64,000 bases of DNA from Promethearchaeota archaeon (GCA_048937405.1 JBHLNF010000001.1:320001-384000), one strand, 5' to 3'. Shown: positions 16,443 through 51,729, counted from the first letter of the stretch. Numbers and translations are program-made. The notes: a model not told the origin generated them from the letters alone.

Positions 16443-16781
16443 TTATCCCGCAGTGCTTGCTGGGATTAAAAGAATATCATCGCCATCGCTGACATTATAG
16501 TCTTTTAACGTATTATTTTCATCCATTGTAACTCCACCAGATGATAAGTGAAAGTCATTAGGATCAAGTCCATATAAATTACCTAATGTTTGCTTAATAT
16601 CACTTACATTGTTGCTATCATTGACAGTCAGTTTTTCCTTTTTTTCACCTGGACCGATTGTAGACATGAAATATAAAGTAAGCTTTTTTCCTGAAGCGGC
16701 GGGTGTTTTGCTACTTGCTGGGGTTTTTGATTTTAGAGGTTCTTCTCCTCCTAAATCCTCATCAAATTCATCAAAACTCAT
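16443..16781 (-). CDS. Ubiquitin-like protein with acidic N-terminal tail, C-terminus ASTAG
   Basis: Beta-grasp pattern (VSDIKQ..L..GG..MDE..TLKDYNVSDGDDILL); first gene of the E1-E2-JAB operon. Confidence 0.9.
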   Translation of the reverse strand: MSFDEFDEDLGGEEPLKSKTPASSKTPAASGKKLTLYFMSTIGPGEKKEKLTVNDSNNVSDIKQTLGNLYGLDPNDFHLSSGGVTMDENNTLKDYNVSDGDDILLIPASTAG

Positions 16782-16888
16782 TCATAACACTTCTTTTTCT
16801 GTTATTTTTTATTTTATTTTTATTTTTAACTTAATAAAAACACGTGAAAAAGATATAATAAAACCCTTTGGAATGATTTTGAAGTTTT
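16722..16888. repeat. Direct repeat copy 1 (Ubl codons 1-20 plus upstream region); left boundary of island
   Basis: Aligns with 51567-51729; 35 bp perfect core at 16750-16784. Confidence 0.9.
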
Positions 16889-16966
16889 CAATTTTCAATT
16901 TGCGTATTAAAGTTTTCTAAATTAACTTTCTAACATAACAATCTTTTTTTCAAGATTATTCTCTTT

Positions 16967-17206
16967 CTAACCTAACATTATTGATGGCACGACAAAAGAA
17001 TTCATGCAAAATGGACACATATTATATTGTAATAACCAATCATGAATACATTTAGAATGAGCCTGATTTCCGCAAAAATGACATGTTATAGTCTCTTCTT
17101 CTCTCTCATCTATTATCTCATGACAAATAATGCAAGTTTCATCATATAAAAATTTCATAATGCTTTCTTGAGAATAATAATATTCTTTATCTTGGATTAT
17201 TATCAA
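16967..17206 (-). CDS. Small RING-type (C4HC3-like) zinc-finger protein, putative E3
   Basis: CIIC..CHFC...H..C...W.....CPFC. Confidence 0.85.
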   Translation of the reverse strand: MIIIQDKEYYYSQESIMKFLYDETCIICHEIIDEREEETITCHFCGNQAHSKCIHDWLLQYNMCPFCMNSFVVPSIMLG

Positions 17207-17405
17207 CTTCCAATTTTTTAATTATAATTTTTTTTCATACACTTTTGTAATCATAATGGTATATATCGTATATAAAAACAACGTTCGTACAACATTTCCA
17301 TTAATACACGATTTTGCCTTTATATATAAAGATGATCTGGATTTTTCCTTTATAAATAAAAAGTAAAATACGGTTTAAATGGTCTAAAGTACATTCTATA
17401 AAGAG

Positions 17406-18632
17406 TTAATGTTTGATAGTTAATTCCATTAACTTTTTTACGTTTGTTTTATCTCGTATTGCATTTCTATTGAGAAATAATACTCCCACAACTACCCCTA
17501 TTACAATCATTATTATTAGGGGAGTTATCATTTTTTTCAAAACATCCCTATCTGAAATTGATATTTGCATATTCGGATCTCTATACTTAAATTCTACAAC
17601 AATAGAGTTATTATCTAATATGTCCGTTCCTTGAAACTTAGATAGTAGTGTAAAGTTTTGATTATTTTCTAAAAACGTAACAGGTATTTCTATTGTAGCT
17701 ATTCCATTATCATCAATAAGACAAGTATTTTGATAAATTAATGAATTATTTGCTTTATAATTTAAATATATATTAAAATATTCATTTTTTATTGGTGTGA
17801 AGTTGCCGTAATAAAAAAAAAGACTAATATTGATGTCGGTGTTTGTTTCATATATGTTTTGGCATTCAAGAACCTCAATAATAATCGGAATCCTTCTTAC
17901 ATTCACACTACTTGAGAATTGATAGTCGTTATACACAGTATCGCTTTCTAATTCAAAATCTAATATATTTAATCCTATGTTTAGACTATCTGTGGAATTT
18001 AAAAAAATATCAATTTGACCATTTTCATCTGTTATATATGTGTTTTGAAAAATTAGATTTGAGTCTGAATATACTTTAAATCCAATTTCTTTACTTGTAA
18101 TATATTCCATCGTAATATTTTCATAAACTCTAATTGAATAATTTAGACATTGACCATACATTATATCATTTTCAATATTAATAATTTCGTGAGTTATGTC
18201 TTTTTTATAAATTTTAATTTCAAACAAATCTAGATAGGTGGATACTGTATTTGTAGTATCAAAATGAAAATAAAAAAAGTACATTTTAACATAGAGAATA
18301 TTGGTACTATTATTAAAATCAATATCCAAACTCTGAATATCTAAAGTCCAATTTTTTTCTATAACTCCTACATTATCATATTCCGACGAATTCCACAGTT
18401 TAAAATCAGAACCATTAAATATTTGTATTTGGATAAAAGCTATTTCAATAGCAGGGTTATAGTCCATCAACCACGAAGCATTTATTATGATATTTCCATC
18501 AATGAAATATTTGGTCTTATCGGTTTCAAAATTATACACTTCACAGTAAAACGATTTCCCTAAAATCGAAAATGAACTAAAGCTAATAGAAACCAATAGC
18601 AAAATTAGAGCACTTTTAGCTTTATATTTCAT
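17406..18632 (-). CDS. Surface protein with signal peptide and C-terminal membrane anchor
   Basis: Hydrophobic N-terminus, beta-rich Asn-rich body, C-terminal TM followed by basic tail. Confidence 0.7.
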   Translation of the reverse strand: MKYKAKSALILLLVSISFSSFSILGKSFYCEVYNFETDKTKYFIDGNIIINASWLMDYNPAIEIAFIQIQIFNGSDFKLWNSSEYDNVGVIEKNWTLDIQSLDIDFNNSTNILYVKMYFFYFHFDTTNTVSTYLDLFEIKIYKKDITHEIINIENDIMYGQCLNYSIRVYENITMEYITSKEIGFKVYSDSNLIFQNTYITDENGQIDIFLNSTDSLNIGLNILDFELESDTVYNDYQFSSSVNVRRIPIIIEVLECQNIYETNTDINISLFFYYGNFTPIKNEYFNIYLNYKANNSLIYQNTCLIDDNGIATIEIPVTFLENNQNFTLLSKFQGTDILDNNSIVVEFKYRDPNMQISISDRDVLKKMITPLIIMIVIGVVVGVLFLNRNAIRDKTNVKKLMELTIKH

Positions 18633-18853
18633 ACTTTCTTTTTGACAAAAAAATATAAAAACTCGTTTAAAAGTAGTTTTGAGATTTATTTTTATTCTAT
18701 ATATCCTCTTTTATTGAAAAATTTTGATCTTTATGACACCGTTTTACATGTTTTTTGAAATTCAATAAAATCAGAACTTTGCTTGAGTAAATAATATCTG
18801 TTGCATAAAACAATGACCAATTAAATATATAAAATATCAAAAAATTTCATTTT

Positions 18854-19092
18854 CTAACCTGATATTACTGAAGGTACAACAAAAGAATTCATGCAAAAGG
18901 ACACATATTATATTTTAGTAATTAATCTCGAATACATTTAGAATGAGCCTTATTTCCGCAAAAATGACAAGTTATAATTTCTCCTTCTCTATCATCTATT
19001 ATTTTATGACAGACAATGCAAGTATCATCTAAAAAAAAATTTCTAACACTTTCAAGAGAATAAAAATATTTTTTATTTTCTATCACTATCCA
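18854..19092 (-). pseudogene. Degenerate duplicate of the small RING gene
   Basis: Translates CIVCHK..CHFCGNKAHSKCIRD then TAA in place of Trp; 2-nt deletion in CPFC; similarity to 16967-17320 extends into the upstream region. Confidence 0.85.
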
Positions 19093-19367
19093 CATCCTAT
19101 TCTCTAAATCTAAAATATTTTCTATACACTTTTGTATTAATGAATACAGTTTATCATATTTAGAAATAATGTTCCTTCAATATTTTTGTTAATATAAGAT
19201 TTTAGGTATTTTGAAAATATAGTAATGGGTCTTAAATAATACAAAGATTTTCTTTGTTCAATAATTATGAAATATTGATCCCAGAGTTGGTGGTAATTCT
19301 AATCCTACAGTTATACTTAAAACTTTTAGTTCTAAAGAAACCTTCAAAGTTTATGTGTATAACTATA

Positions 19368-20527: not shown

Positions 20528-21931
20528 CAATGAAAGCAAAATAAAGCCCTTCTCTTTAGGGATGGGATGAATTTTGCTGTGAACATCATTAAATCATTCC
20601 AGTTTATCTTTTAAAATAGGTAAAATAATATACTGCTTATAATGCTTCGTACCAACATATTAGAATTGAACCCTTCCCCACACCAGAGGAAGATTCTTCA
20701 TACAATGTTGGTAAGATCTAGTGCCATCTGGAACCTAGGGAATTATACACGGCGACAAGCATTCTTTAATAAAGATACAAAAAGTCCATCTTATTCTCTT
20801 CAATGTAAGGAACTAAAGGATAATAATCTTTATAAATCGTTAGGATCTGCATATTCCCAGCAAATCTTAAAGAAATTGGACAAATCATGGCAGTCATTTT
20901 GGAATTCTTTAAAATCTGAGAATATTACACATAAGGTATCAATCCCTCACTATTTTAAGAATTATAAAACTAATCAAACCCTCCCTACATTATTGATTTG
21001 TCGAAATGATTGTTACCATATTGATCAGAATTATATTTATATTTCTTGTTCTAAGGATTTAAAGGAAGAATATAGACTTAAAGGACTTCTGAAAATAAGA
21101 TATAAAGGAATAAGAAAATGGAAGGGTGTGCAAAAGGTTATGGAGATTAAATATATTCCCTATCTTAAGAAATTTTATGCGTATCAGACTGAAGAGGTAG
21201 CTTCTACTCCCATAGACTTTAAAGAAGAGAATATTTGTTCTATTGATTTGGGAATTAAGCGATATCTTACCACCTGCATTAAAATCTCTGAAGATCTCTC
21301 TTTTATCTATGAATCAGAGCACATATTTCAACAATATCTCATTCTTTCAAGAAGAATAGCCTATTATCAAGCAAGAGCTAAAAAAGAGAATAACAAATAT
21401 ACTACTCATAGAATTAGAAGATTATATCTTAAAAGAAGACGAAAACTACATAACTATCTTAATAATATTTTGGCACATTTATTTCGGAAATTGAAGCACT
21501 ATCAGGTCTCAAAGATTGTAATCGGAGACTTACAAGGTATTAGAGATTCTCAAATTCCCTCGTATTATAAAAATAAGAAAAAGATCAATGAGATGATTCA
21601 AAACTTCTGGTCAGTTGATCTTTTTAAAAAAAAACTACAAAATAAATGTGAGGAGTTTGGAATTGACCTTGTGGAAATCGATGAAGCCTATACATCTTCT
21701 ACTTGTCCTATGTGTAATGAGAGAGTCAGTCCGAATGATAGAACTTTTAAATGTCCCCGCTGTGGGTATAAGCAAGATAGAGATGTAGTAGGAGGTATTA
21801 ATATTCTTAAGAAATATTATCATGATCATCATATTGATGATGTAAGGATAGAGAACTATCCTTTAGTGTCTACGATTCTCATTGAATCATAGGGACTATG
21901 AATCCATATCCTTTAGGGTATGGTAGTTCAA
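20528..21931 (+). mobile_element. Non-autonomous IS200/IS605-family (IS608-like ends) element
   Basis: TTAC at 20524-20527 before the left end; AAAG + hairpin CCCTTCTCTTTAGGGATGGG; right end GAAT + hairpin CCATATCCTTTAGGGTATGG, ending in TCAA; no tnpA. Confidence 0.88.
20642..21892 (+). CDS. tnpB: RNA-guided endonuclease TnpB
   Basis: SIDLG (RuvC-I), VIGDL (RuvC-II), EAYTSSTCPMC..FKCPRCG..DRDVVG (zinc finger + RuvC-III). Confidence 0.93.
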   Translation: MLRTNILELNPSPHQRKILHTMLVRSSAIWNLGNYTRRQAFFNKDTKSPSYSLQCKELKDNNLYKSLGSAYSQQILKKLDKSWQSFWNSLKSENITHKVSIPHYFKNYKTNQTLPTLLICRNDCYHIDQNYIYISCSKDLKEEYRLKGLLKIRYKGIRKWKGVQKVMEIKYIPYLKKFYAYQTEEVASTPIDFKEENICSIDLGIKRYLTTCIKISEDLSFIYESEHIFQQYLILSRRIAYYQARAKKENNKYTTHRIRRLYLKRRRKLHNYLNNILAHLFRKLKHYQVSKIVIGDLQGIRDSQIPSYYKNKKKINEMIQNFWSVDLFKKKLQNKCEEFGIDLVEIDEAYTSSTCPMCNERVSPNDRTFKCPRCGYKQDRDVVGGINILKKYYHDHHIDDVRIENYPLVSTILIES

Positions 21932-22230: not shown

Positions 22231-23472
22231 TCATAAATTTCTTTTCTCAGCTTTCATACGCTTTAGTTCTGCTTCAATCTCTTCGTCTGAAGTAAAAGTA
22301 CCCAGAATTCCTATATCAGTGATCTGTGTTGTTTCGAAATCAACACATTTGAATTTGTTATCAAATCTATTAACTAATACATTTAATAGTTTGACCTTGT
22401 TTCCCTCTCTAAAAACATCATTGAACTTATTAATATCCTCATCAAAAATGGTTACGGTCATAACTCCTGTGTCGTCTCTAATATCAATTTGTTGGAATAA
22501 TTCCTTTCCGTAAATGTCACACTCTCCCATATCGCCCCGTTTAACCACGATTCCTTCAATATGTGTTAACCAGTTAGAATAACGATACTTCTTTATCGCT
22601 TCAATGTTAGGGAGATCTACAATATCGTAATCATACTTCTTTATTTCCGTTCCCATCGTGCTTTCAAGTGTTGCTTGTTTTTTCCATTTTTTTCGCTTCA
22701 AGTTTGTTATTGTCACGATATCTCCTAATGTGAATGATTCTGTTAACCCTACTTTCTTATTCCAAAAGGTAACCTTAATAATTCCCGTGCTATCTGCAAT
22801 AATTACAATTCTCATTTGTCCCTTCAAGCCATCCTTTCTTTCAAACACCTTGATATCTTTTATATCCATTATACATACGGAAACAGTAACTAAATCGTTG
22901 TGATATTCCGTTTCTTCACCCGATTCAATGTGCCACACTTGAAATTCTTTTTGTTGGTAAATGGGATAATCCTTCTCCTTCATAACACTTAGATTTATTT
23001 GTATATCCCCATCATGTTCCAATTGTAATGACATCTCTTCATTTTTCCTACTTTTTACATTACATCCATTTATTTTAATGAGTAGATTGGGTCTTAAATT
23101 TCTCATTATCTCTGTTTGTTCGTTCCATAATACCACTTTCACACAACCTGTCTTGTCAAATATTGTGAATGTTCCTATCTTTCCCATCCATAAATCCCTC
23201 TTAAAGGAATTTAGTCTATGCAGAAAGCGTATTCTCCCCACAACAGTTATATCTTTCATTCCTAAAGTTAGTGAACTGATTTCCGTAATTTTTTTTGAAT
23301 TACTATGTGATATCCCAAACTCCCTTGCCAAGAGGAGTAACGAGGCTTTTGCTGATATTAGTCCTTTCAATTCTTCTTGTTTTTCTTTCACTTTTTCCCT
23401 TATTTCTGACAGACTAAGCCCCGTCTTGTATATAATCAAAGATTCCAAATTTTTATACTCCTTTTCTTTCAT
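22231..23472 (-). CDS. Replication protein A-like ssDNA-binding protein (three OB folds)
   Basis: N-terminal GLIS.KASLLLLAREFGI plus three D.TG...V..W/F OB-fold motifs. Confidence 0.88.
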   Translation of the reverse strand: MKEKEYKNLESLIIYKTGLSLSEIREKVKEKQEELKGLISAKASLLLLAREFGISHSNSKKITEISSLTLGMKDITVVGRIRFLHRLNSFKRDLWMGKIGTFTIFDKTGCVKVVLWNEQTEIMRNLRPNLLIKINGCNVKSRKNEEMSLQLEHDGDIQINLSVMKEKDYPIYQQKEFQVWHIESGEETEYHNDLVTVSVCIMDIKDIKVFERKDGLKGQMRIVIIADSTGIIKVTFWNKKVGLTESFTLGDIVTITNLKRKKWKKQATLESTMGTEIKKYDYDIVDLPNIEAIKKYRYSNWLTHIEGIVVKRGDMGECDIYGKELFQQIDIRDDTGVMTVTIFDEDINKFNDVFREGNKVKLLNVLVNRFDNKFKCVDFETTQITDIGILGTFTSDEEIEAELKRMKAEKRNL

Positions 23473-23533
23473 ACTCTTCTCCTAAATTTTTTTATAACTG
23501 AAATGTAACAATCAATTCTTATTTCTGCATTCT

Positions 23534-23878
23534 TTACACCTCAGCAAGATAATCAAAAGAATCAAGGATTTTATCTAATTTATTGAAAAATTTTTTTTTA
23601 AAATAGAAACGTGGCTTCTTGAATGCACATATCGAATGGAGTGTTATAAATTGAGTTCTTTCTGTTTTCCTATATAAGCGAAAACTGATAAAAAAAGTCA
23701 TTTCAGCGAGTTTATTGCATATTGGACATGTAGGGGAATTTATATAATTTCTTTTGTCTAAAACCACTTTTAATGTTTTTTTTCTTAGTAACATCTTGAA
23801 ATCATACCATCCTCCTTCTTTATTTTTACAAATACAGTTTCTCTTATTTTTCCTTATTTCTTCGCTGTTTGTGTTCAT
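23534..23878 (-). CDS. Hypothetical small zinc-binding protein
   Basis: CPIC...HSIC; co-oriented within the operon. Confidence 0.5.
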   Translation of the reverse strand: MNTNSEEIRKNKRNCICKNKEGGWYDFKMLLRKKTLKVVLDKRNYINSPTCPICNKLAEMTFFISFRLYRKTERTQFITLHSICAFKKPRFYFKKKFFNKLDKILDSFDYLAEV

Positions 23879-24800
23879 AAATCTCTTTCGATTTCTTAGT
23901 TTTTGCTATATTTTCCAAATCTGTACTTTGCATGTAAAAAATATCTTGAATTCCTAATTTGACACACTCTTTAGTAATTTTAGAAAGATTCTGTAATTCT
24001 GCAATTTTCCCTGCTTTCCACAGTAAATTCAAACCATATCTAATATCTTTTTTTCTATATGTTTCGTCGGAAATCAATCTAATTACGTCATTCGAGATTG
24101 CATCTTTTTTAAAGCTGAGTTCTGCCCTAAACTTTAAGATATCAAAAACCTGCTTTTTAGAATAATCACTAAAATTTATAATATTTCTTTGAAGTGTGCT
24201 TATTGTTCCTGAATCTAAATCATCTATACATGAGATATTTTGAGTAATTCCTATAATGGATATATGAGAGGGTTTATTGAAAGAATCGTCATTTAACCGA
24301 GTTAAAGAATGAAGAATATCTTTATTATTCTTAATGAGATGGTTGAACTCATCTAAAATAATGAGTAAATAAACATTATCTAACTCTGTAAACTCTCTTA
24401 GGAGATCTAAAAGTTCTGATGGGGCATAGCCCCTTTTAGTAAATTTTGGGTTAATTGAGGAAAGAATTGTCATTAATATTTTATAACCTGATTTTTTAAC
24501 CCGACAATTGATAAAAACAGAGTAAAGAAATCTCTCTCTCTTCTCTGCTTCTTTCCTAAGAAGACTTATAAAAAATTTTACCGTTGCCGTTTTACCCGTC
24601 CCAGAATTGCCTGTGATTAAGATATTTTTTGAAATCGCATTTCGATGTAATAAAATAGGTAAAAAATATTGTGCAAGAATAGATAATCCTTTTTCTCGAT
24701 AAGGAAGTTTATGAGGAACATAATCATTTTCTAATTTACTTTCATCCACGAAAATTGAATACTTATCATCATTATCTAATAAATTTGAGAATAGATCCAC
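23844..24800 (-). CDS. cdc6: Orc1/Cdc6-family AAA+ protein, apparently lacking the C-terminal winged helix
   Basis: YVPHKLPYRE, GNSGTGKT, INCR, IILDEF, DIRYGLNLL; only 318 aa. Confidence 0.85.
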   Translation of the reverse strand: MDLFSNLLDNDDKYSIFVDESKLENDYVPHKLPYREKGLSILAQYFLPILLHRNAISKNILITGNSGTGKTATVKFFISLLRKEAEKRERFLYSVFINCRVKKSGYKILMTILSSINPKFTKRGYAPSELLDLLREFTELDNVYLLIILDEFNHLIKNNKDILHSLTRLNDDSFNKPSHISIIGITQNISCIDDLDSGTISTLQRNIINFSDYSKKQVFDILKFRAELSFKKDAISNDVIRLISDETYRKKDIRYGLNLLWKAGKIAELQNLSKITKECVKLGIQDIFYMQSTDLENIAKTKKSKEIYEHKQRRNKEK

Positions 24801-25017
24801 TTTTTACAGCCCTCATTTAATAGTAGTTTTAACAATTTCTCTTCCTTTTTTTGAAACAAAAGCATTTGTCATTCCACTTAAACTTTCTATTTTTTAAAAT
24901 GACAATTTAAGAAAGTGAGAGAAAGGCAACATAGTAGAAATGACTAAAGCATAAGGGAAGTATTAGGATTTCTTTTCACGTCCCTTTCTCTCATGTTTTT
25001 TTCCCTTTCCCTGTTTT

Positions 25018-25389
25018 TCATAGTAGACTTATTGATTTAATCTTTTTTCCTCCCAATTCTAAAGTAATAATAGTAATCCTTTCCATCAAGTTCAATTCGA
25101 TATAATTCTTTTTTTTTTCTAAATCATCGCATATACTTTTTATAGCTGGATAATAATCAATGCTTTTATCAAAAGGAAATAACTGATGAATCGGATCTAA
25201 GGTTATTTTATAAATGTCCTCAATTGTATAGGCGAATTCATTGTTCTTTCTAATAAAATTGCTAATTATGTCTCTTTTCATTACGAATTCAAAACTCTCA
25301 AATAAAAGATCGAAGAATTTTTGCTCACTCATTATATTATCGTCCTTAATTTCGTTCATGAAGGTTCTCATCTGCCTTATTTTTTCCAA
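25018..25389 (-). CDS. Hypothetical protein
   Basis: 123 aa ORF co-oriented between radA and cdc6. Confidence 0.4.
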   Translation of the reverse strand: MEKIRQMRTFMNEIKDDNIMSEQKFFDLLFESFEFVMKRDIISNFIRKNNEFAYTIEDIYKITLDPIHQLFPFDKSIDYYPAIKSICDDLEKKKNYIELNLMERITIITLELGGKKIKSISLL

Positions 25390-25582
25390 ATCTTTTATTC
25401 CACATCATACCACAAAAAAAACCTAGAGTGAAATGTTTTAGTAATTCCTTATCTTTCGGTTTCAATTGGGATTCTCCTTGATCTGAGCCGTCTATGATTT
25501 TTCTCATCTCTTCTTCAAAATCCAATTCTTTTCCCATAACCCAATCACTTAAAATCTATTTTTCATTTTTCAATTTTTTAAA

Positions 25583-26662
25583 TTAAAAGACTAATTTTTC
25601 TGTTTCCTCATCTTCAAATATTTCCTTAGTTGTTTCAATATATTCATCTGTAATCCCTTTTCGATTGATATAAAAGCTTACTTCCCTTTCGGGAAGCCCT
25701 GAGTCTTTTAACATCTTTGCATATCGTTTTGTAGGTTGCTTACCTCTACGAAGGTAAATTCGATATGGTGTATAATGAGCCATTACATTTCCTCCTGACC
25801 ACTTGATTTGATTTTTCAATGAACCATTCCCATAACTTCCTACTTGATTTGTATAGATAACCATAACATCAAACAATAGGGTAAGCTTCTTCAGAGATTC
25901 AATCATGTGAGCTAAAATTTGCTGTCTTTTGATATTGTCCCTTGTTCCTTTTATATATTCCGCTCTGAACTTTGCGATAATACTATCTACAATAATTAAT
26001 TTGACTGGTTTTGTTCTAAACTCATCATAGATGAATTCATTAATAATTAATTCCTGTTGGAATGAGTTTAACGGTTTGATAACTTCAATTCGCTCTAAAA
26101 CTTTATTCCCATCGATACCATTTTCCTTTGCAATTTGAAGTATCCTTTCTGGTCTAAATCCTAGTTCAGTATCTATATAAATTACATCCCCGTCTAATCC
26201 ACCTTTCTCTATAGGTTGTGTGGCATACACACATAATGTATGAGCAATCTGAGTTTTTCCTGATGTACTTTTCCCAAAAAACTCAACTACACTATTTTTA
26301 TGAATTCCTCCTACTAGTTTTCCTTTTCGTTGGTCATAATTTAGAAATAAGGAATTTAACCGTTTGCTTCCCGTAGTGAGTCTGCAAACTTCATTTCTAT
26401 TCTTGTTTGTAGTAGTAGCTTTTTCCCGAAAACTAATTCTTACATTTAAAGCATCATATACCTCCTCAACTAATAATCTAGCATCTAATTCTGATATACG
26501 GAGTATAGCCATAAGCTGAGATACTTTTATCATAGAAAGTTGTTCTACTGTCTCAATTCCTGCTTTTTTTAACTTAGTTTTCTTGTCGTTAGAAATTTTT
26601 AGCTGAGTGATTTTTATAGATTTTACAATTTCTACATTTTGATTCTGTTCACCTTGAGTCAT
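25583..26662 (-). CDS. radA: RadA/Rad51-family recombinase
   Basis: N-terminal HhH (KLKKAGIETVE), LTTGS, FGKSTSGKTQ, YIDTE..FRPERI, LIIVDS, RQQ, TNQV, GGNVMAH. Confidence 0.92.
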   Translation of the reverse strand: MTQGEQNQNVEIVKSIKITQLKISNDKKTKLKKAGIETVEQLSMIKVSQLMAILRISELDARLLVEEVYDALNVRISFREKATTTNKNRNEVCRLTTGSKRLNSLFLNYDQRKGKLVGGIHKNSVVEFFGKSTSGKTQIAHTLCVYATQPIEKGGLDGDVIYIDTELGFRPERILQIAKENGIDGNKVLERIEVIKPLNSFQQELIINEFIYDEFRTKPVKLIIVDSIIAKFRAEYIKGTRDNIKRQQILAHMIESLKKLTLLFDVMVIYTNQVGSYGNGSLKNQIKWSGGNVMAHYTPYRIYLRRGKQPTKRYAKMLKDSGLPEREVSFYINRKGITDEYIETTKEIFEDEETEKLVF

Positions 26663-27119
26663 TTTTAAGACCTTATCCTGTTTTCTCTTTTTTAAATTAT
26701 CATTTAAATCTGCCGACAAAAAATTTGTCAATGTAATAATTACAGATATATTAATATTTAAATGTTTTACTTTTGTGTTGATTTATAATGAATAATTATT
26801 TTACTATCGTGTTAAATATTGATAAACTTATAATTATATAAATAAAACTAAAAAATTATAGTTCTTTTATTTATATTTCTATAATATTTTAATAATAAAA
26901 TTAATTAAAAAATGAGAAAAATTATGTTATTTAATATAAATCAATGTTCTATATTCCATTATTATATTTATATGTTTAAGAAAATGCTCTAAATATAATT
27001 AAAAATATTCAAAAATTCTGTAATTTACCTATAAATCAAATATTTTTAAAATAAAATATTATTATATTATCCTACTTTAATATTAATAATATTTACGAAA
27101 AAAATGGTAATATGTAAAA

Positions 27120-28037: not shown

Positions 28038-28670
28038 TCAAATAAAACATTTCATAAACGTTGTAAAACCAAACAAAAGACAATCAATAACTCCCGCAAT
28101 GAACAGTTTAAAACTCGTTGTATGAGTTTTATTAGCATACATAATCATGAATCTTAATCCCATAATTATCCCTGCGAAACCAGTAAAAGATGTTAAAGCG
28201 AAACAATAATAGATCGATTTTTCATAAGGATATACTGCCAAATCTGGATCTTGAAACCTTGCCATAAATTCTTCTGGGATAAATCCCGCAAAGTTGATGA
28301 AGTCATATAAAAATGCGTCTGGAATTGGATCTAAGACAAACATCAATACATGTACTAAATATCCTAGAAGAATTCCCGTTGCTAACGCAAAATAAAATAC
28401 TCCTAATATTAAGTGAGTTTCTTTTGACTTGCCTAATTGTAATTTCTGCTCTTCGTCCATATCGTACTCTTTCATTTTCATTCCTCTGGAAAAACCCCTA
28501 TATCGTCGTAATGTTAAATATCCGATTGCATAGAGCAAAAAAATAAGGATATATTTTAAGAGGAGAAATAAGGTTTCCATTACTGTATTAAAAATGACAA
28601 AAAAGTTTAGAAACCTGTCAAGAATATCATCCATCCCGTCATTAATACTAAGAATTTGCGATATACTCAA
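28038..28670 (-). CDS. Multi-pass membrane protein
   Basis: About 4 hydrophobic segments; in operon with the ATPase. Confidence 0.7.
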   Translation of the reverse strand: MSISQILSINDGMDDILDRFLNFFVIFNTVMETLFLLLKYILIFLLYAIGYLTLRRYRGFSRGMKMKEYDMDEEQKLQLGKSKETHLILGVFYFALATGILLGYLVHVLMFVLDPIPDAFLYDFINFAGFIPEEFMARFQDPDLAVYPYEKSIYYCFALTSFTGFAGIIMGLRFMIMYANKTHTTSFKLFIAGVIDCLLFGFTTFMKCFI

Positions 28671-29033: not shown

Positions 29034-30716
29034 TTATATTCTATTTATAATGGTATTGCACACATCACAACGAATAAGATCTCCAATTATCTCATTTCCG
29101 CAAAAATGACAATACTTCCCAGTATCTTCTGTTATATTTTGGGTTTCTGGTTTTTCTGGTTCATGGTCTACTATTTCAATTATATTTTCCTGACTAGTCC
29201 TATTTTGTATTCTATCTAATATTTTTTTATTATTTTGCTCAATTTCTTCTTCTGCTAACCATTCTCGTTTTATAAACGGTACTTTTAACGCAAATGGTTT
29301 TCCTATTGAATTTACTCGTATCATGCATTTACCTACACCTAATAAAGATAAAAATTTCCTCTCTTTATCTTCAAAATTTAGTAGATCCTGTAAATAGTCT
29401 TTTTGCATGTGATTTTGAAAGGACACTAAAATTCCGCAATTTGCAAGAATCTCAGGTGATACCGCAGGACGTGTCGCTAAAGAGATTAAGCATTCTCCCG
29501 TACCTCTTAAAAGTAATGCAATATCTTCTATGTAAGAAGAGATTGTGGATCGTTGTGTGGTTGACTGCGATGCAAAATACTGGGCATCTTCTATTATTGT
29601 AATATGTCTAATTCCTTTGTATTCTTTACTTCCCATTTCGATATTTATATCCCATAAATACTTGAAAAGCATATTTAAGAAAAATAGGGTATCTTCTTTT
29701 TCCCCTCCAATTTTTATAATTCCACTCACATCAAGTAAGATATTGTGCTTAAAAATTTCTTTTACATCTAATCCCATCTTCGTCTCAAAACTGTGCTTTA
29801 GTGTACCTAAGCTGTACCGTCGTATTCTATTGGTTACTGCGGTTACACTACTTTTAAAGGTAGGATCTCTAGTTTCAGCATAGATTTCTTCGTAATATTT
29901 CTCTGAATCTTCATAAAAAGCTTTCCAATTTCTCTTTACGGGATCGTCACAAACTCTTTTTAATATATCTGTAAAAACCCTTTCCATTTGAGGAGTATAT
30001 TCAACACCTTCAAATAACCCTCCACTTCTGAAAATTTGGAATACCCGTTCTGCATGTACTTCACTATCTTGTCCTTCAGGATCGAAAATATTAATGGCAA
30101 AATTTTTTCCAACTATAAACACCAGTAAGTTAGGAATTTTCTTTTGTAAATAATGATATTCTCCTTTAAATTCTGCCAATAGAAACGGTGTAGTATACTT
30201 TTTGGTATAATTGATTAGGAAATTTTGGAAAAAATTACTTTTTCCTGAACCTGTAATTCCAGTTATAAACATGTGACGGGCGAGGTCTTGTAATCTGATA
30301 TGATAACTATATTTCTTTTTATTTCCGTATAATACCGTTCCTACATTGATTTCTCCTTTTTTTGCCAAATTCTTTGTTGGATAACTTAATTTAATTAGTT
30401 CTTCTTTTTTCACATATTTGAAGGATTTTACGCTTATTACTAGCGAAATCCAAAAGATTGTTTGATTTAGGGTTATTAACGATAGTAGAAGATCATGCTT
30501 AAGGTATTCTGAATTAATATAAAACTCTAAATTCGAAAGATAATAGATTAAAAGTAGTACAATAAATAAAATGAATATTATATTAAAGATCCTATTTGAG
30601 ATTGTATTTCTTTTTCTAATAATGGTATTTTTAAACGTTCTTTTTCTAAAAAAATACCCAACTATAGAAAAAAAAATAAATCCTATACATAAAATAAATT
30701 CTATAACCAATGACAT
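29034..30716 (-). CDS. Membrane-anchored HerA/VirB4/FtsK-like ATPase (DUF87 type)
   Basis: 3 N-terminal TMs, RHMFITGITGSGKS, EFKGEY, IIEDAQ, LRGTG, C-terminal CHFC..CDVC. Confidence 0.85.
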   Translation of the reverse strand: MSLVIEFILCIGFIFFSIVGYFFRKRTFKNTIIRKRNTISNRIFNIIFILFIVLLLIYYLSNLEFYINSEYLKHDLLLSLITLNQTIFWISLVISVKSFKYVKKEELIKLSYPTKNLAKKGEINVGTVLYGNKKKYSYHIRLQDLARHMFITGITGSGKSNFFQNFLINYTKKYTTPFLLAEFKGEYHYLQKKIPNLLVFIVGKNFAINIFDPEGQDSEVHAERVFQIFRSGGLFEGVEYTPQMERVFTDILKRVCDDPVKRNWKAFYEDSEKYYEEIYAETRDPTFKSSVTAVTNRIRRYSLGTLKHSFETKMGLDVKEIFKHNILLDVSGIIKIGGEKEDTLFFLNMLFKYLWDINIEMGSKEYKGIRHITIIEDAQYFASQSTTQRSTISSYIEDIALLLRGTGECLISLATRPAVSPEILANCGILVSFQNHMQKDYLQDLLNFEDKERKFLSLLGVGKCMIRVNSIGKPFALKVPFIKREWLAEEEIEQNNKKILDRIQNRTSQENIIEIVDHEPEKPETQNITEDTGKYCHFCGNEIIGDLIRCDVCNTIINRI

Positions 30717-36864: not shown

Positions 36865-37002
36865 TGTAATACAATTAAGCTAATCGTAGTACAATTTAGG
36901 TATTCGTAATACAATTCAATATATTTTGTAATACAATTTGATTTATTTTGTAATACAAAATTTCCTTTTGTACTACAAATCAGCTTTCCTATGTAATACA
37001 AT
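36865..37002. promoter_or_regulatory. Array of seven GTA-N-TACAA sites with 20-23 bp period (iteron/operator-like)
   Basis: Cores at 36866, 36886, 36906, 36928, 36950, 36970, 36993, directly upstream of the HUH gene. Confidence 0.85.
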
Positions 37003-37082
37003 TGAAAAAAAAGTGAACTTTGCTCGAAGTTAGAAATAGTTACCATCTTTAGATTAGTTTTTATAGCTCTTTATACAATTTT

Positions 37083-42911: not shown

Positions 42912-43745
42912 TTATCTCCTTGGGTTAATTATTACTTTTACTTTGAATTCTTCTGTTTCTTTAGATAAATCATTTTGGAGTGCTTCAGGATTAGAAATCA
43001 ATTCTTGAGGATCATAGATAAAGCAATATAATATCTTACAATTTGGATGAGTCTGATATTTTGCAATATCATCATTTAATTGTACTCCAAGCTCTTTATC
43101 CTTTAAATTTTCTGAAGTTTTTTTTACTTCAATAACAATTTTTTCATTTTTTAGTAAAAAATCCATACGTGAATTACTACCAGCAAAACTAGGCGTGAAT
43201 TCTTCAGCTCTTACATCATCAAATTCTAACTTTAATAAAGCATGTAATAAATCTTGTACATCATATTCATTTTGCACTTTAATTATTGGTATTGTACTTT
43301 TACCTTGACGCTTTTTTAATTGCTTTACAAATCTATGAAATCTACTTAGAATTCGTATAAGTTTTTCTTCTACGTTTTCAGTTTTTCTCTCTCTTTCTTC
43401 TTCTGTTTTTCCGATTGTTTCTTTAGCCTTTTCAATTTCTAATTCATCCAAAATAGTCTCAATAAGATTAAAATATTTTTTTCCTTTCGTTAGTAAATCT
43501 TCTCTAACTCGTTTATTAGTAATTGATTGAGGAGTATCGGCGTAAATACTGGGGGCTTTTAGGATATCATTTTGTAAGCCCTCAAGTTGATTTAAATAAT
43601 CCCTTTCTCTTCCGAATTTTCTTTCAACAATCATTACTAATTTTCTATGGACTTTATCCAAAATATATTTAATTTCATCCTTATTTTTTTCTGGTAATTT
43701 TGTAAGATCATCAATTATTTCTTTTAGAAGTAGTTTTTCGGACAT
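42912..43745 (-). CDS. PD-(D/E)XK restriction-endonuclease-like protein
   Basis: NEYDVQDLLHALL..DVRAEE.TPSFAG..SRMDFLL..IVIEVK. Confidence 0.8.
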   Translation of the reverse strand: MSEKLLLKEIIDDLTKLPEKNKDEIKYILDKVHRKLVMIVERKFGRERDYLNQLEGLQNDILKAPSIYADTPQSITNKRVREDLLTKGKKYFNLIETILDELEIEKAKETIGKTEEERERKTENVEEKLIRILSRFHRFVKQLKKRQGKSTIPIIKVQNEYDVQDLLHALLKLEFDDVRAEEFTPSFAGSNSRMDFLLKNEKIVIEVKKTSENLKDKELGVQLNDDIAKYQTHPNCKILYCFIYDPQELISNPEALQNDLSKETEEFKVKVIINPRR

Positions 43746-43942: not shown

Positions 43943-44494
43943 TTACCTCTCCTTAAACTCATCTAACTCTACATCTATTTCCTCTTCAAACTCCTCAAAA
44001 ATCTCCTCTCTTGTCAAATCTTTTTCCTGTTCTTGTTGTTCTTGTTCTTCTATGAATTGCTTTACTTTATCCTTAATTTCTTTTTGATTCTCATGGTAAA
44101 ATGTGTCTAATTGCTCTTTTTCTAATTGCTTTGAGGTGTTATTTTGCTTGGAGTTAGGATATTCCTGTAAATTTCCGTCTAGGTCAAATTCAGTTCGGGT
44201 AAAATCCCTGCTACTTTTAGGTGGTGGTGTTATTTTTCGTTTTATTGACTGTTTCTTGGGAATTTCTTTGTTTTTATTAAAATATTGGGTTATACGCCCT
44301 TCCTGCTTCTTTTCTTTTTTATTATTTATTTCTTCGGTTACCTGCTTAATTGTAGTCTCTATTCGTTCTCGGAATAACTCTTTATGTTGCTTATATTTTT
44401 CTTTATCAGCTCTAAAGGAGATTACCGTGCTGGGATTTTCAAATTTCTTAGGTCTATGTCCCTTCTTTTTTCGCTTTGAATCTCCTTCTGGCAT
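43943..44494 (-). CDS. Putative ribbon-helix-helix DNA-binding protein with acidic tail
   Basis: KGHRPKKFENPSTVISFR N-terminus; ATG 44494 after AGGTG. Confidence 0.55.
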   Translation of the reverse strand: MPEGDSKRKKKGHRPKKFENPSTVISFRADKEKYKQHKELFRERIETTIKQVTEEINNKKEKKQEGRITQYFNKNKEIPKKQSIKRKITPPPKSSRDFTRTEFDLDGNLQEYPNSKQNNTSKQLEKEQLDTFYHENQKEIKDKVKQFIEEQEQQEQEKDLTREEIFEEFEEEIDVELDEFKER

Positions 44495-44784
44495 GTTTAA
44501 CACCTACTTTTATCTTATTTACCCATATAAATGAATCTAGATATACTATTGAAAACCTTTAATATGGATAATTTCAATTGTAGTACAATTACTTTTACAT
44601 TTTTGTATTTAAACAACGAAATTTTTCAAAAAAAATGCAATAAACTTCAAGAGAAAAGAGGGTTGCCGAATGTAGCGAAGCGGAGTAAGGCTAGATTTGG
44701 GCGTAGCTTTCCAACTGACCTTTAGGAAGGAAGGAAAGCAAGAACAAATCGTATCCCTCCATTAAAAAAGGTAAGACGGAATTG
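44389..44784. repeat. ~390 bp direct repeat copy 1 (RHH 5' end, promoter, structured element)
   Basis: Aligns with 45880-46275. Confidence 0.88.
44658..44760. other. GC-rich branched ssDNA/RNA structure, copy 1
   Basis: GAGGG/CCCTC closing stem, GCC..GGC hairpin, GATTTG/CAAATC and GCTTTCC/GGAAAGC stems. Confidence 0.7.
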
Positions 44785-45872: not shown

Positions 45873-45879
45873 TAATTAA

Positions 45880-46275
45880 GCTCATATTTTTCTTTATCCG
45901 CTCTAAAGGAGATTACCTCGCTTGATTTCTCAAATTTCTTGGGTCGATGCCCTTTCTTCTTTTTCTTTGAATTATCATCAACCTATTTGAACACCAAATT
46001 TAATATTAGTTAACCTTATGGAAGAATTTAAGAATATTTTTGAAATAAATTAGTATGGATAATTCTCAATTGTAATACAAACGACTCTGAATGTATCTGT
46101 CTAAACTCCTTAATTCTTCAATAATACTACATCTAATTCTAAGTAAAAAGAGGGTTGCCGAACGTAGCGAAGCGAAGTAAGGCTAGATTTGGGCGTAGCT
46201 TTCCGACTGACCTTTAGGAAGGAAGGAAAGCAAGAACAAATCGTATCCCTCCATTAAAGAGGTAAGGCGGAGTTG
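45880..46275. repeat. ~390 bp direct repeat copy 2 with truncated RHH remnant
   Basis: Minus strand reads KKKKGHRPKKFEKSSEVISFRADKEKYE and then breaks at the radical SAM stop. Confidence 0.88.
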
Positions 46276-46362
46276 TTTTGCGGAGCAAAACTAGACCACT
46301 CCGTAGCTTTTCGATTGATATGGAATGAAAGAAGGAAAGCAAGGAGTGGTCGTATCGAAGCC
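46150..46362. other. GC-rich branched structure, copy 2 plus a co-varying tandem unit
   Basis: 46150-46252 nearly identical to copy 1; 46266-46362 has the same architecture with different stems. Confidence 0.7.
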
Positions 46363-47729: not shown

Positions 47730-48098
47730 TTCTGATACTAACCTATATTATATTATTTAGTATTATTAATTTTTATCTTTCCTATTAACCTTCTATTTAT
47801 TTTAATCTTTTAAATTTTTAATTAATAATATTCCATAACATTAAAAAAAGGCAATAAGCTCTAGTCTTTCATAAAAATCAATCTATCATAGAATATATTA
47901 TCGTCAATTATTTTAAATGAAATTCTCCTTTGCTTTATCCATTCTTGCTTATATAGTTTTGAATAATTTTTAAATTGTCAATCGAAATGATATAGGAATG
48001 TTCAAGTAAAAATGCCTTTTATTTATTCTATTTTTTTGTAAATTTTTTTAGTTTGACTCTAAATTCTTTCCAAGTTTAACCAAAAAGTTAAATTTTAT

Positions 48099-50219: not shown

Positions 50220-51162
50220 GTTCTATACACGTACAAACTCAATAATACTGAAGAAATCTAAGATTCTTTTTTATTTAGATTTAACTAACAATATTTTAAT
50301 AAAAAAGATATAAAATTATATTATAGCAAGATTTTAGAGGAAGTAATATTATAAGAATTTATTATCCTGCTCATACTTTATCATTTCATCTGGTCTTAAA
50401 TTCAATCAAATGATTTTTTTAAAATTTTAAGATTCTTACTTTTTTAGAATACTATTTTGTCTTACTTAAGATAATCTTAAATTTCATTATTACGTTCTGA
50501 AATCCTATTACCTATTACTAAACCTTCATATGTGAGTAAATAATGGTATTTATTGACGAATATATCTCTACTTATCAATCCTTTTTGAAAAAATCTTTTC
50601 ATTGTAGCTTTGAATGACATATTAGTAATTTAGAATTAGATATCTCATTATATTTCTCAAGTAACTCTTTCTGCGTAGTATAACAAATTTCACATTTCTC
50701 TTTTTTATAGGAATATGTTAGCATAAATTTTTCCACCTTTCCTGATCTAACCATTTTTCTTTTTTTATTCTTATTTCTAAACATATTAAAAAAATTCACT
50801 ATTGATCTCTACTCGATCTATATCTTTTTATACCCTCATTAATCTATTGTTCTGTCTAATGATGTTGGAATTAGGGAGTGGTTGTCACCTTTTCCACTCC
50901 CTTCTTAAAAACAAATAAAAATAGGTTTAATTGGTTTTTTTGTCTTATTGAAGATAAATATGAGGATCATGCATGCTAATCATGTATGCTTATCATGTAT
51001 ATACACGAACAGTTAAATAATAAGATTGAATCATTTATAATAAGAAAAGTAGTTGGGAGAATTCAATAAATAATCTCAAGGATAACCCTAATAATATCCT
51101 CTTTTCTAACTAGTGTGTTCTTCTTTAAAAAAACAATTAAAATTAAATTTATGGGAGAGAAG

Positions 51163-51394
51163 TATGAAATATTATTGTCCACATTGTAAATCTGAAAGAG
51201 TTATTGAATATGGGAAATATTTTCAATGTGTAGAATGTAATTCAGAATTTTCTAAAGAATCTGTGGGAAATATTGAAGATACAAATATACTTTCCACTCA
51301 AGAATTAGATGGGTTTATCGATTCTTTTGAAGAATTAAAAGATAAGAAGCAAAGAGATGGGTTTTTGGAATCTCTTAAAGAGGATTTTCACTAA
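51163..51394 (+). CDS. Small zinc-ribbon protein
   Basis: YYCPHC...FQCVEC; ATG after GGGAG. Confidence 0.7.
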
Positions 51395-51398
51395 ACCT

Positions 51399-51530
51399 TT
51401 TGTACTACAATTATTCTTCTAAATTTAAATTGTAGTACATCAAAAATATTCCTCTTTTCAATTGTATTACACTTAAATTTCATCTGTATTACAATGTATT
51501 ACAATTGAACTTTCTTCCTATGTAACAAGT
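51399..51530. promoter_or_regulatory. Second array of TGTA-N-TACA sites at the island right end
   Basis: Cores at 51402, 51432, 51464, 51486, 51496 (partial at 51522). Confidence 0.8.
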
Positions 51531-51563
51531 ATATTTAACGACAGTTAAGATGAAATGATATAT

Positions 51564-51626
51564 TTAGGTTTTGGATTTTAAAGGTTGCTCCCCACCTAAA
51601 TCCTCATCAAATTCATCAAAACTCAT
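51564..51626 (-). pseudogene. 5' fragment of the Ubl gene (MSFDEFDEDLGGEQPLKSKT-stop)
   Basis: 19/20 aa identical to the N-terminus of 16443-16781. Confidence 0.9.
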
Positions 51627-51729
51627 TCAAAACACTTCTTTTTCTGTTATTTTTTATTTTATAATTTTTTCTTAATAAAAACACATAAAAAAGATATAAT
51701 AAAACCCTTTGGAATGATTTTGAAGTTTT
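51567..51729. repeat. Direct repeat copy 2; right boundary of island
   Basis: Aligns with 16722-16888. Confidence 0.9.

Follow-up and report, generated by a model that had tools for sequence, protein, structure and literature searches.

A gene-restoring mobile element at the ubiquitin-like gene of a Lokiarchaeial ubiquitin operon

The start of a ubiquitin-like (Ubl) gene occurs twice in the genome of a Promethearchaeota archaeon (G000; 4.47 Mb), the two copies lying 34.8 kb apart in direct orientation, which raises the question of how so much DNA came to stand between them and which copy the functional gene now uses. Here, we address this question in a 64,000-nt stretch of the genome (the window, whose 1-based positions are used throughout). 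The explanation we favor, at a probability of roughly three in four, is that a gene-restoring mobile element was joined to the gene at about codon 20 by a non-standard system encoded by the element itself.

A precise insertion at about codon 20 of the Ubl gene

The intact Ubl gene (16443-16781, minus strand; 112 aa; Pfam ubiquitin, E 4.5e-8) has orthologs in all congeners and is followed by a host ubiquitin-system operon (12478-16401, minus strand) collinear with all congeners, comprising E1/ThiF (15130-16401; Pfam ThiF, 4e-60), E2 (14494-15021; UQ_con, 2e-26), JAB/MPN (13646-14500; JAB, 3.5e-14), and a 379-aa gene (12478-13617). Ubl, E1, E2, and JAB/MPN are co-oriented and kept together in congeners, as in Asgard/eukaryote-like ubiquitin operons. 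Beyond the duplicated stretch lie host genes that adjoin Ubl-E1 in congeners (51882-53895; Pfam), i.e., a wHTH regulator (51882-52553, plus strand), a 261-aa Ubl-domain protein (52639-53424, plus strand), and a Ubl paralog (53482-53895, minus strand). A tRNA target was ruled out, as there is no tRNA within the window.

Alignment of the repeats agrees with a preliminary description of this DNA, which had reported that the Ubl upstream region and codons 1-20 occur twice in direct orientation, the right copy stopping after codon 20. The left copy (called P; 16722-16888, minus strand) holds codons 1-20 and 107 nt upstream, including a conserved promoter block, while the rest of the Ubl gene (16443-16721) is host DNA; the right copy (51567-51729, minus strand) holds the promoter block and codons 1-20, followed by TAA, and is contiguous with the host wHTH gene. 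A repeat search returned two blocks of 88% identity (16722-16834 versus 51567-51679, and 16806-16888 versus 51647-51729), their offset shifted by a 4-nt indel. Once aligned, the copies are 92.6% identical over 163 aligned bases, with 12 substitutions and the one 4-nt indel, and include an identical 34-nt tract (16847-16880 = 51688-51721). Two further details of that description were recovered, namely a 68-nt core with a single mismatch and six coding differences, five of them synonymous and the sixth Glu14Gln. The only other full-length match in the 4.47 Mb genome (72%, contig C19) is the promoter and 5' end of a full-length Ubl paralog, and thus the pair is not a dispersed repeat. The outer repeat edge (16888/51729) coincides with the edge of the promoter block kept in all congeners and marks a limit of constraint, which is not necessarily the limit of the segment captured by the element.

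The empty site that the preliminary description had proposed to look for is present in all 20 congeneric genomes in which the site was aligned or located: each has a single copy and an uninterrupted run of wHTH, promoter, Ubl, and E1, which identifies 16889-51566 as a precise insertion. This ancestral order is also the one expected if deleting the intervening DNA joined E1-E2-JAB-Ubl to the wHTH gene and Ubl paralogs. Seven genomes (G002, G012, G014, G018, G046, G043, and G042) are collinear by blastn with the flanks of the insertion (...51568 and 16888...), the two alignments overlapping by one repeat copy, and the E1-wHTH spacing is ~650 bp in at least 13 of 18 congeners. The 34.7-kb body (16889-51566) is absent at this site from all congeners (blastn). 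Direct repeats at both ends and a single-copy empty site in relatives are what characterize an integrative element, and the point at which this one went into the host chromosome is about codon 20 of Ubl. A second rearrangement of the locus, in G006 (promoter-Ubl-E1' twice, 103 kb apart), was dropped, its breakpoints being 100-N scaffold gaps.

The element, its terminus, and its relatives

Copies of the same element at other sites in other genomes identify the inserted DNA as mobile. A backbone 75-88% similar lies inside a 319-aa small-GTPase gene in G008 (contig C82, 16721-50198), and a third copy has its terminus at the start of aroA in G046 (contig C120). Together with the empty site, these copies bear out the earlier view of an integrative element that restores its target; the DNA at 16889-51566 belongs to a Lokiarchaeial family of integrated mobile genetic elements that had not been described before. 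Sister elements that end in the same terminus lie in a small-GTPase gene and at the start of aroA, and the family as a whole is thus not specific to Ubl; the proposed targeting of a ubiquitin locus describes this insertion and does not extend to its relatives. In the 84%-complete assembly of G046, aroA was not recovered, and so neither was the element's left end; the Rep-like gene was also absent from its expected place in that copy, where a GIY-YIG-like ORF lies. More distant Rep-like loci, at 35% aa identity, were seen in G115 and G109, with neither flanking repeats nor iterons in the 60 kb around them.

Backbone proteins of the family include RPA-like, Orc1/Cdc6, RadA-like, HerA-like, PD-(D/E)xK nuclease, and weakly HUH-like proteins. 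In the window, a replication/recombination module (22231-26731, minus strand; Pfam) encodes an RPA-like OB protein (22231-23472), Orc1/Cdc6 (23844-24800), and a RadA/Rad51-like protein (25583-26731) with 74%, 64%, and 81% aa identity, respectively, to the G008 element, while other RadA-like genes in the host reach 38% to the element's protein. Also on the minus strand are a HerA/FtsK-like ATPase (29034-30716; Pfam DUF87, PADLOC HerA), a 704-aa protein with a C-terminal PD-(D/E)xK (Cas4/RecB-like) domain (31496-33610; weak NCBIfam NucS/Cas4 matches and Atlas PDDEXK_1 leads), a 333-aa Rep-like protein, candidate HUH (35781-36782; 80% aa identity to its G008 counterpart), and a cargo DpnII/MboI-type restriction endonuclease (42912-43745; Pfam, 4e-53). 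A 408-aa protein (17406-18632, minus strand), whose translation starts with a signal-like segment and has a TM anchor at the C-terminus, has a 35% homolog within the G008 element and a 37% host paralog on contig C29. That contig carries paralogs of five island proteins, and its reading as a related plasmid was dropped because its pair of Cdc6 and surface protein is a conserved chromosomal arrangement in many congeners. TnpB (IS605-type OrfB; 20642-21892, plus strand; Pfam OrfB_IS605, Cas12f1-like_TNB) is a secondary IS insertion, with copies on C24 and C28 that are 88% (protein) and 92% (DNA) identical. Searches of the PDB with single sequences of the 333-, 423-, 704-, and 706-aa proteins gave no match, nine unknown ORFs had no PHROGs or NCBIfam match, and a 395-aa protein had sub-threshold leads only in the Atlas.

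Directly upstream of the Ubl promoter, and co-oriented with it, lies a small RING-finger gene (16967-17206, minus strand; 79 aa; Pfam zf-RING_2), of which a repeat search found a decayed second copy at 18837-19122. It has no ortholog in 53 congeners (best match 53% over the RING domain), and congeners have Ubl next to wHTH, not the RING-Ubl adjacency that the preliminary description had named among the findings that would refute its reading.

At its right end, the element carries a conserved 32-nt terminus, CTATGTAACAAGTATATTTAACGACAGTTAAG (51518-51549, plus strand), whose hairpin (TTAAC-GACA-GTTAA, 51535-51548) is conserved in 3/3 element copies. The same 32 nt abut host DNA at 50198 in G008, while the first 31 recur in G046 with T instead of G as the last base, and all three elements have this 31-32 nt hairpin terminus near a displaced host fragment. 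In the window, the terminus and the right repeat copy are separated by a further 17 nt (51550-51566). Sequences after the hairpin differ among the three copies (ATGAAATG, ATTGTCCG, and TCCTATTA), and the three junctions have no target tetranucleotide in common. Among 54 genomes of the genus, the terminus was found only in G000, G008, and G046, and its motif had zero matches in JGI metagenome contigs. Iterons (TGTAnTACA) form just two clusters in the 4.47 Mb genome, one upstream of the Rep-like gene (cluster A, 36865-37003) and one at the terminus (cluster B, 51400-51506), the latter hairpin-forming when single-stranded (z = -3.1).

Route of integration and origin of the repeat copies

The G008 insertion shows most clearly which repeat copy the element brought. 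Its flanking repeat spans 770 bp at 77% identity; the truncated right copy with its flank is 91.7% identical to G045, whereas, in the intact left copy, identity is 90-97% as far as ~15950 and ~76% from there on. The foreign 3' part of the intact gene (pS 0.72, pN 0.12, dN/dS ~0.05) has no indels and the same stop codon. In G008, then, the truncated copy is the host allele and the gene-restoring segment is foreign. The foreign stretch may start 20-45 nt left of the displaced copy's start, an offset that a clean reciprocal crossover does not predict.

As to the enzyme, six-frame searches for tyrosine recombinases (PF00589, E ≤ 0.1) matched G000 only at C9:13802 and C28:148250, and matched nothing on the G008 and G046 contigs that carry the element; serine recombinases (PF00239), rve (PF00665), and Cas1 (PF01867) were absent from six-frame translations of the island and of the G008 contig; and no island ORF matched an integrase in Pfam, PHROGs, or NCBIfam. 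By these sequence searches, at E ≤ 0.1, the element has no integrase of a known family. The analogy that the preliminary description drew with elements that restore tRNA genes therefore extends to the outcome and not necessarily to the mechanism. The 333-aa Rep-like protein belongs to a family of 14 members, all unannotated (two named Promethearchaeota come from MAGs), in which HIHV is nearly invariant and YYTxFYxLSK conserved. Best VIA-align matches to its AF2 model (pLDDT 73.5) are HUH Reps, at only Z 3.2-4.6 and mixed with RRM-like folds (RepB of pMV158, 4.6; SIRV1 ORF119, 4.5; Vientovirus Rep, 4.5; NS1, 4.2; Helitron, 3.6), while Foldseek against the PDB and a search with PF04986 (Y2_Tnp) gave no match. 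The confinement of the iterons to the region upstream of its gene and to the terminus adds to this lead, but with Z below 5 and short motifs, the modeled protein is a weak candidate for a HUH enzyme.

Under the explanation we favor, the first stretch of the inserted DNA is probably a copy of the Ubl promoter and codons 1-20 that the element itself carried (16722-16888). The Ubl-E1-E2-JAB operon would then stay intact, driven by sequence that came with the element, as did the RING gene immediately upstream. The promoter and first 20 codons native to the host would have been displaced 34.8 kb rightward (51567-51729), still facing the wHTH gene and now pointing into the element's right end. We infer that integration was carried out by an element-encoded system, rather than by a tyrosine or serine recombinase, DDE integrase, or Cas1, acting at the conserved hairpin terminus beside the iteron array. 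Most likely to act there are the HUH-like protein, as the enzyme that would cut or seal the terminus, and, together with it, the element's RadA-like, RPA-like, HerA-like, and PD-(D/E)xK proteins, and the gene-restoring segment would give register with the target. Set against this picture are the 17 nt between terminus and right copy, which it leaves unexplained, the offset in G008, and the G046 copy with no Rep-like gene at the expected place.

A bolder possibility, which we regard as tentative and on the unlikely side, is an undescribed, target-programmable integration in which the captured gene segment both picks the target and repairs it. The HUH-like protein would open a circle at the hairpin terminus, the captured segment would invade the homologous host gene with the aid of the RadA-like, RPA-like, and HerA-like proteins and the PD-(D/E)xK nuclease, and the element would be joined exactly at the homology edge. 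This would account for one terminus with three targets and for edge crossovers at 77% identity. If true, a eukaryote-like ubiquitin operon would stand under a mobile promoter beside a mobile RING E3.

More doubtful is Campbell-type integration, whereby a circular plasmid or virus that had acquired a host-gene fragment by imprecise excision from an earlier host entered by a single, host RadA-mediated crossover in the captured homology, with no element-specific recombinase. The absence of an integrase fits this, as do the unrelated host-derived segments (167 bp and 770 bp) that related elements carry at three targets, and the elements encode RadA-like and RPA-like proteins themselves. However, in G008 the crossover is at the very end of the 770-bp homology (over its first 33 nt, the displaced copy agrees with G045 at 29/33 positions and with the foreign copy at 23/33), the partners, 77% identical with no long identical tracts near the edge, are a poor substrate for standard homologous recombination, and the hairpin terminus exactly at the G008 junction suggests a defined cleavage or joining site.

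In the window, polarity rests on ~11 informative characters. The closest relative is G046, with ~90% identity in each flank; it has the right copy's state at 7 substitutions as well as its 4-nt deletion, and the left copy's state at 3 substitutions. In the coding part, the right copy has 3 differences from G018 and the left copy 6. This gives moderate support, from sequence comparison, to the polarity seen in G008. By that analogy and the comparison with G046, the left copy is probably element-borne and the right copy probably the displaced original host segment. A crossover within the 68-bp near-identical core is disfavored, as G046 sides with the right copy on both flanks of the core (3 versus 1 and 4 versus 2); it probably lay at the left repeat edge (the codon-20 end), as it clearly does in G008, which would leave the right copy wholly displaced host and the left copy wholly element-borne. 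On the best available evidence, the functional Ubl thus appears to use the element's promoter and first 20 codons; the promoter replacement put forward in the preliminary description is probable, given G046 and the G008 analogy.

Left-right identity (92.6%) exceeds that of either copy to any relative (at most 92%), which leaves room for a recent common origin of both copies within the G000 lineage. The promoter parts of both copies also have common derived states against all congeners. Both observations would suit a target duplication, in which insertion itself doubled the host's own sequence (e.g., through staggered breaks or through repair synthesis), the copies have since diverged where they stand, and the left one is not foreign. 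We consider this very unlikely. It is excluded for the family by G008, where the intact copy is 76% identical to its nearest host relative, the truncated copy 91.7%, and dN/dS ~0.05. In the window, the 4-nt deletion unites the right copy with G046, as does the state at alignment column 68, for which the left copy retains what is seen in the outgroups G042 and G043, and five synonymous differences among six are unexpected for a fragment dead throughout.

An assembly artefact, i.e., a contig misjoined at Ubl-like repeats or a strain chimera, which the preliminary description had also named, is extremely unlikely: the genome does come from a metagenome or enrichment with 5.7% contamination, and congener assemblies often break within Ubl (G014, G018, and G006), but the copies differ at 12 positions plus an indel (~7% of positions). 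The right copy ends at codon 20 and continues into unique element sequence, whose terminus is also found at host junctions in two other genomes. Within the 1.05 Mb contig, both new junctions are made of unique sequence, and words across the right junction recur in contigs from five runs (two studies), one run possibly being the source sample.

Significance and comparison with known systems

Integrated elements of Lokiarchaeia are barely described, and those known in Asgard archaea so far have tyrosine integrases and short att sites. New here is a family defined by three copies, three targets, a hairpin terminus, and no known integrase, with its own Orc1/Cdc6, RPA-like, RadA-like, and HerA-like set. 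Targets restored with long, foreign, selectively maintained segments (167-770 bp) point to an integration route so far uncharacterised, and to exchange of core-gene alleles and promoters between archaeal species. The apparently complete RING-Ubl-E1-E2-JAB cassette of this genome is a chimera, whose small RING is mobile DNA, as probably are the operon promoter and the first 20 codons of Ubl; any inference from the locus about the ancestry or regulation of eukaryote-like ubiquitylation has to take this into account.

Rolling-circle (HUH) elements include IS91/ISCR, Helitrons, and RCR plasmids such as pMV158. Like them, the element has a candidate HUH protein, with RepB of pMV158 as its top structural match, an iteron array beside a small hairpin at one precisely conserved end, and no evident target-site duplication, and, as in one-ended transposition, host sequence is carried beside the conserved end. 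Unlike them, it is 35 kb long with Orc1/Cdc6, its protein does not match Y2_Tnp (PF04986) and has structural Z below 5, and there is no common target tetranucleotide. The carried segment is also in register with the target gene, for which rolling-circle capture alone does not account.

Archaeal integrated elements offer a second comparison. Thaumarchaeal ones lie in tRNA genes (39), intergenic regions (15), and 3'-distal regions of protein genes (14) (PMC6563490), and those of the Asgard Atabeyarchaeia have tyrosine integrases and an 11-bp att motif (PMC11529989). Their att sites are short (29-69 bp is the range quoted for crenarchaeal ones), and they encode PF00589 integrases or casposases. 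The element here is likewise chromosomal, between direct repeats, with an empty site in relatives and restriction and defence-type cargo, but it lacks PF00589 and Cas1, and the sequence repeated at its ends is a functional gene segment that has diverged. The tyrosine integrase IntpTN3 of Thermococcus nautili can also recombine any two identical segments that are 104 bp or longer (PMC5495485, PMC8371274), and there, as here, an archaeal mobile element brings about what looks like homologous recombination of a segment that it carries with one in the chromosome; the present element, however, lacks an SSV-family tyrosine integrase, and its partners are only 77-93% identical.

Parallels in outcome are also found among prophages that insert within protein-coding genes, supply a replacement gene end, and leave a host/element chimera as the intact gene. 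Phage 21 integrates in Escherichia coli icd, as does e14. The latter leaves a 163-bp pseudo-icd', while Rac sits at the 5' end of ttcA (PMC6379469) and shows that 5'-end targets are known. As with e14, a partial copy of similar size stands at the other end here (163 versus 163-167 bp), and, as in these prophages, differences between copies are mostly synonymous. Where the prophages have tyrosine integrases and a fixed attB, this element has no detectable integrase family, the segment that it replaces includes a promoter, and close relatives with the same terminus use three genes, with restoring segments that range from 167 to 770 bp.

A precise insertion in the Ubl gene

The genome under study, G000 (4.47 Mb in 29 contigs, roughly 29% GC), carries in the window, which spans C7:320001-384000, a ubiquitin-family gene, Ubl, of 112 aa (16443-16781, minus strand; Pfam), with E1, E2, and JAB genes downstream of it (Pfam). 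A repeat search of the window recovered 16722-16888 and 51567-51729, a pair with one 4-nt indel and an identical run of 34 nt. The left copy consists of Ubl codons 1-20 plus 107 nt upstream and includes the TATA-like TTTTATTATAT, and the right copy holds the same 20 codons followed by TAA, with one Glu-to-Gln and five synonymous changes; a wHTH gene and two genes for Ubl-domain proteins follow to its right (Pfam). The repeat search and the translation of both copies bear out the preliminary description, which had reported the repeat, the end of the right copy directly after codon 20, and the synonymous nature of five of the six coding differences. Elsewhere in the genome, the repeat is matched over its full length at a single place, contig C19, where it aligns at 72% with the promoter and 5′ end of a complete Ubl paralog. 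No tRNA genes were found in the window. A promoter-distal block, AAAACTTCAAAATCATTCCAAAGGGTTTTATnATA, occupies 16847-16888 and 51688-51729 and shows little or no variation ahead of Ubl across 17 congeners. It recurs at G000:C19:~88230-88265, upstream of the C19 paralog, and at G000:C25:62869-62899 (L004 1500-1535), where a 212-aa gene begins ~430 nt further downstream; the block is a candidate operator that the neighbouring wHTH protein may bind.

An empty site, which the preliminary description had suggested seeking in related genomes, was found there, with the Ubl promoter adjoining the wHTH side and a single repeat copy. Protein searches placed the wHTH ortholog ~650 bp from the E1 ortholog, in divergent orientation, in at least 13 of 18 congeners. 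By blastn, four congeners (G002, G012, G014, and G018) each give one alignment covering the window from ~59.9 kb to 51568 and a second, collinear one that enters the operon from 16888, with an overlap of ~170 bp (i.e., one repeat copy), and three more (G046, G043, and G042) show the same collinearity and one-copy overlap, while homology around the left copy ends at, or a few bases from, 16888 in every relative. These empty-site alignments identify 16889-51566, hereafter the island, as a precise insertion, unique to this genome among those examined. An apparent rearrangement at the Ubl locus of another congener, G006, was rejected, its breakpoints being 100-N scaffold gaps; this “complete” one-contig assembly has such gaps exactly at the Ubl/E1 locus (C1:568803 and 672201) and holds two diverged copies of promoter-Ubl-E1′, which would reflect an error of scaffolding or a mix of strains.

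Foreign and displaced repeat copies in a sister element and, probably, in the window

The closest relative, G046 (~90% identical in both flanks, empty site), has the 4-nt deletion of the right copy and 7 of 12 of its substitution states, and the left copy's states at 3. At alignment column 68 and at the indel, it is the left copy that has the outgroup state (G042 and G043). From the G046 and outgroup states we read, with moderate confidence, 16722-16888 as element-borne and 51567-51729 as a displaced host segment. The insertion that restores Ubl, as first described, is largely upheld, with the crossover probably lying outside the 68-bp near-identical core, on both sides of which G046 agrees with the right copy. 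The outer repeat edge coincides with the edge of a promoter block conserved in every congener, and the loss of similarity there probably reflects the end of constraint.

A DNA search of the genus revealed a sister element in G008 (C82), with a collinear backbone of 75-81% DNA identity to the island and, by tblastn, homologs of nearly every island gene from 22231 to 44503. This element (~16721-50198) occupies another host site, with flanks matching G000:C7:19-36 kb and 35-44 kb, and is bracketed by a 770-bp direct repeat, only 77% identical, whose sequence is the final 262 codons of a small-GTPase-like gene (319 aa). Among 30 orthologs compared, the gene of the congener G045 matches the truncated right copy at 91.6%, against 76% for that copy's own left partner, and with 1.5 kb of downstream flank included the match to G045 is uniformly 91.7%. 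Identity to G045 is 90-97% over the left flank and the initial 170 bp of the intact gene, then falls to ~76% at ~15900-15950. Between the two copies pS is 0.72 and pN 0.12; indels are absent, and both end at the same stop. This pattern points clearly to a chimeric intact gene, in which a host 5′ part is joined to a 3′ part that is foreign, under functional constraint, and supplied by the element, and to a displaced fragment that is the host original, with the junction at the very edge of homology. In the window, where the segment is short, the evidence points the same way.

Both elements have the same 32-nt terminus, CTATGTAACAAGTATATTTAACGACAGTTAAG, ahead of the displaced copy, directly adjoining host DNA in G008 and separated from it by 17 extra nt in G000, the genome under study. 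It includes the hairpin TTAAC-GACA-GTTAA and, in a pattern search of 54 genomes, occurred in G000, G008, and G046 only. In G046 (C120, a short contig) it meets host DNA between aroA and aroC, right at the start codon of aroA, a gene that a search of the G046 assembly did not recover. The G000 element is mobile, and its proposed specificity for the ubiquitin locus must be corrected, as sister elements with the same terminus lie in a small-GTPase gene and at aroA. The G046 copy has a 344-aa ORF with a GIY-YIG-like motif (L061 reverse-complement coordinates 62-1096) in place of the island's Rep-like gene, keeps only the first ~30 nt of rep plus its iterons, and may be a non-autonomous derivative.

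Island gene content and candidate integration mechanism

Pfam matches in the island include a small RING gene (16967-17206), with a decayed duplicate containing stop codons (18837-19122), an RPA-like OB protein, Orc1/Cdc6, a Rad51/RadA-like protein, a HerA/FtsK-like ATPase, a DpnII-type restriction enzyme, and a radical-SAM protein, while weak NCBIfam matches and Atlas leads indicate a C-terminal PD-(D/E)xK domain in a 704-aa protein. Given that other RadA-like genes in the host show 38% identity, these island genes are additional copies rather than the core genes. A TnpB gene (OrfB_IS605; 20642-21892; Pfam), with no TnpA seen, is a secondary IS, or IS remnant, inserted into the island, because copies with 88% protein and 92% DNA identity occur on C24 and C28 (a 135-nt fragment is on C11). 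The HerA-like ATPase (29034-30716) and an adjacent 210-aa protein (28038-28670) make up a module that recurs several times per genome throughout the genus (64-70% nt identity; one at G000:C28:309210-311638; many congeners), which suggests a wider set of related elements. Orc1/Cdc6 and a 408-aa-type surface protein, diverged copies of both of which the island carries, form a conserved chromosomal pair (G000:C29:57309-59676; many congeners) that in congeners lies about 7-9.6 kb from contig ends, at a fixed distance from something breaking assemblies. Segments 44389-44766 and 45880-46258 (75-82% identical, 1.49 kb apart; also 46327-46356) bracket the radical-SAM gene, and the G008 element keeps part of this motif at its own right end (G008:C82:49836-50054).

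Six-frame searches of the G000 and G008 elements detected neither a tyrosine nor a serine recombinase, and no rve, Cas1, or Y2 transposase, so that the earlier analogy with integrative elements applies to the outcome. Both encode a 333-aa protein (35781-36782, minus strand, in the island; 80% aa identity between the two) with HxH and Tyr motifs, from an unannotated family of 14 members (the two with taxon names are Promethearchaeota MAGs) present in 9 of 153 genomes of the order. The best structural matches of its model are HUH Reps (RepB of pMV158, SIRV1 ORF119, Vientovirus Rep, NS1, and Helitron), at Z of only 3.2-4.6, and Foldseek returned no match. Iterons lie beside both the promoter of this gene and the terminus; the palindrome TGTAnTACA forms only two clusters in the whole genome, upstream of the gene (36865-37003) and at the island right end (51400-51506).

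On the most economical reading, an element-encoded nicking and joining activity would act at the hairpin terminus, the carried gene segment would give register with the target, and element recombination proteins would possibly assist; TTAACGACAGTTAAG is a candidate ssDNA nicking substrate of the 333-aa protein. The main rival, plain homologous recombination between carried segment and target, is disfavoured by a crossover at the homology edge and partners only 77% identical in G008. There is a real chance that integration proceeds by an uncharacterised mechanism. A further possibility, duplication of the target followed by divergence in place, can be excluded in G008 and is unlikely in the window.

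Consequences at the Ubl locus and known systems

The small RING gene immediately upstream of Ubl has no ortholog in 53 congeners, and the seemingly “complete” RING-Ubl-E1-E2-JAB cassette is thus a host/MGE chimera, partly mobile. Judging from orientation, the displaced host promoter would now face the minus-strand genes of the element (50799-46458). G000 has other repeat pairs on one strand, with 77-96% identity and a spacing of 3-17 kb, at C7:199709-199869/214735-214895 (96%), C28:481691-481839/492237-492385 (82%), C28:251017-251736/253835-254554, C11:22455/34090, and C19:97368-98159/114172-114963, and gene-restoring insertions may be common in this genome. Overall, the preliminary description was sound in its observation and largely in its interpretation, and was amended on three points: its specificity for the target, the place of the crossover, and the lack of an integrase.

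In outcome, the G000 insertion matches e14, whose integration into icd leaves behind a pseudo-icd′ of 163 bp, and Rac, which sits at the ttcA 5′ end (PMC6379469), as well as iMGEs that archaea carry inside protein-coding genes (PMC6563490). The Asgard iMGEs described to date rely on tyrosine integrases and short motifs (PMC11529989), whereas the G000 and G008 elements have no known integrase. Archaeal MGE enzymes can mimic homologous recombination, as IntpTN3 does (PMC8371274), but IntpTN3 is a tyrosine integrase, unlike anything in these elements. What is new here is the combination of no known integrase, one terminus for three targets, and restoring segments that are long and foreign.
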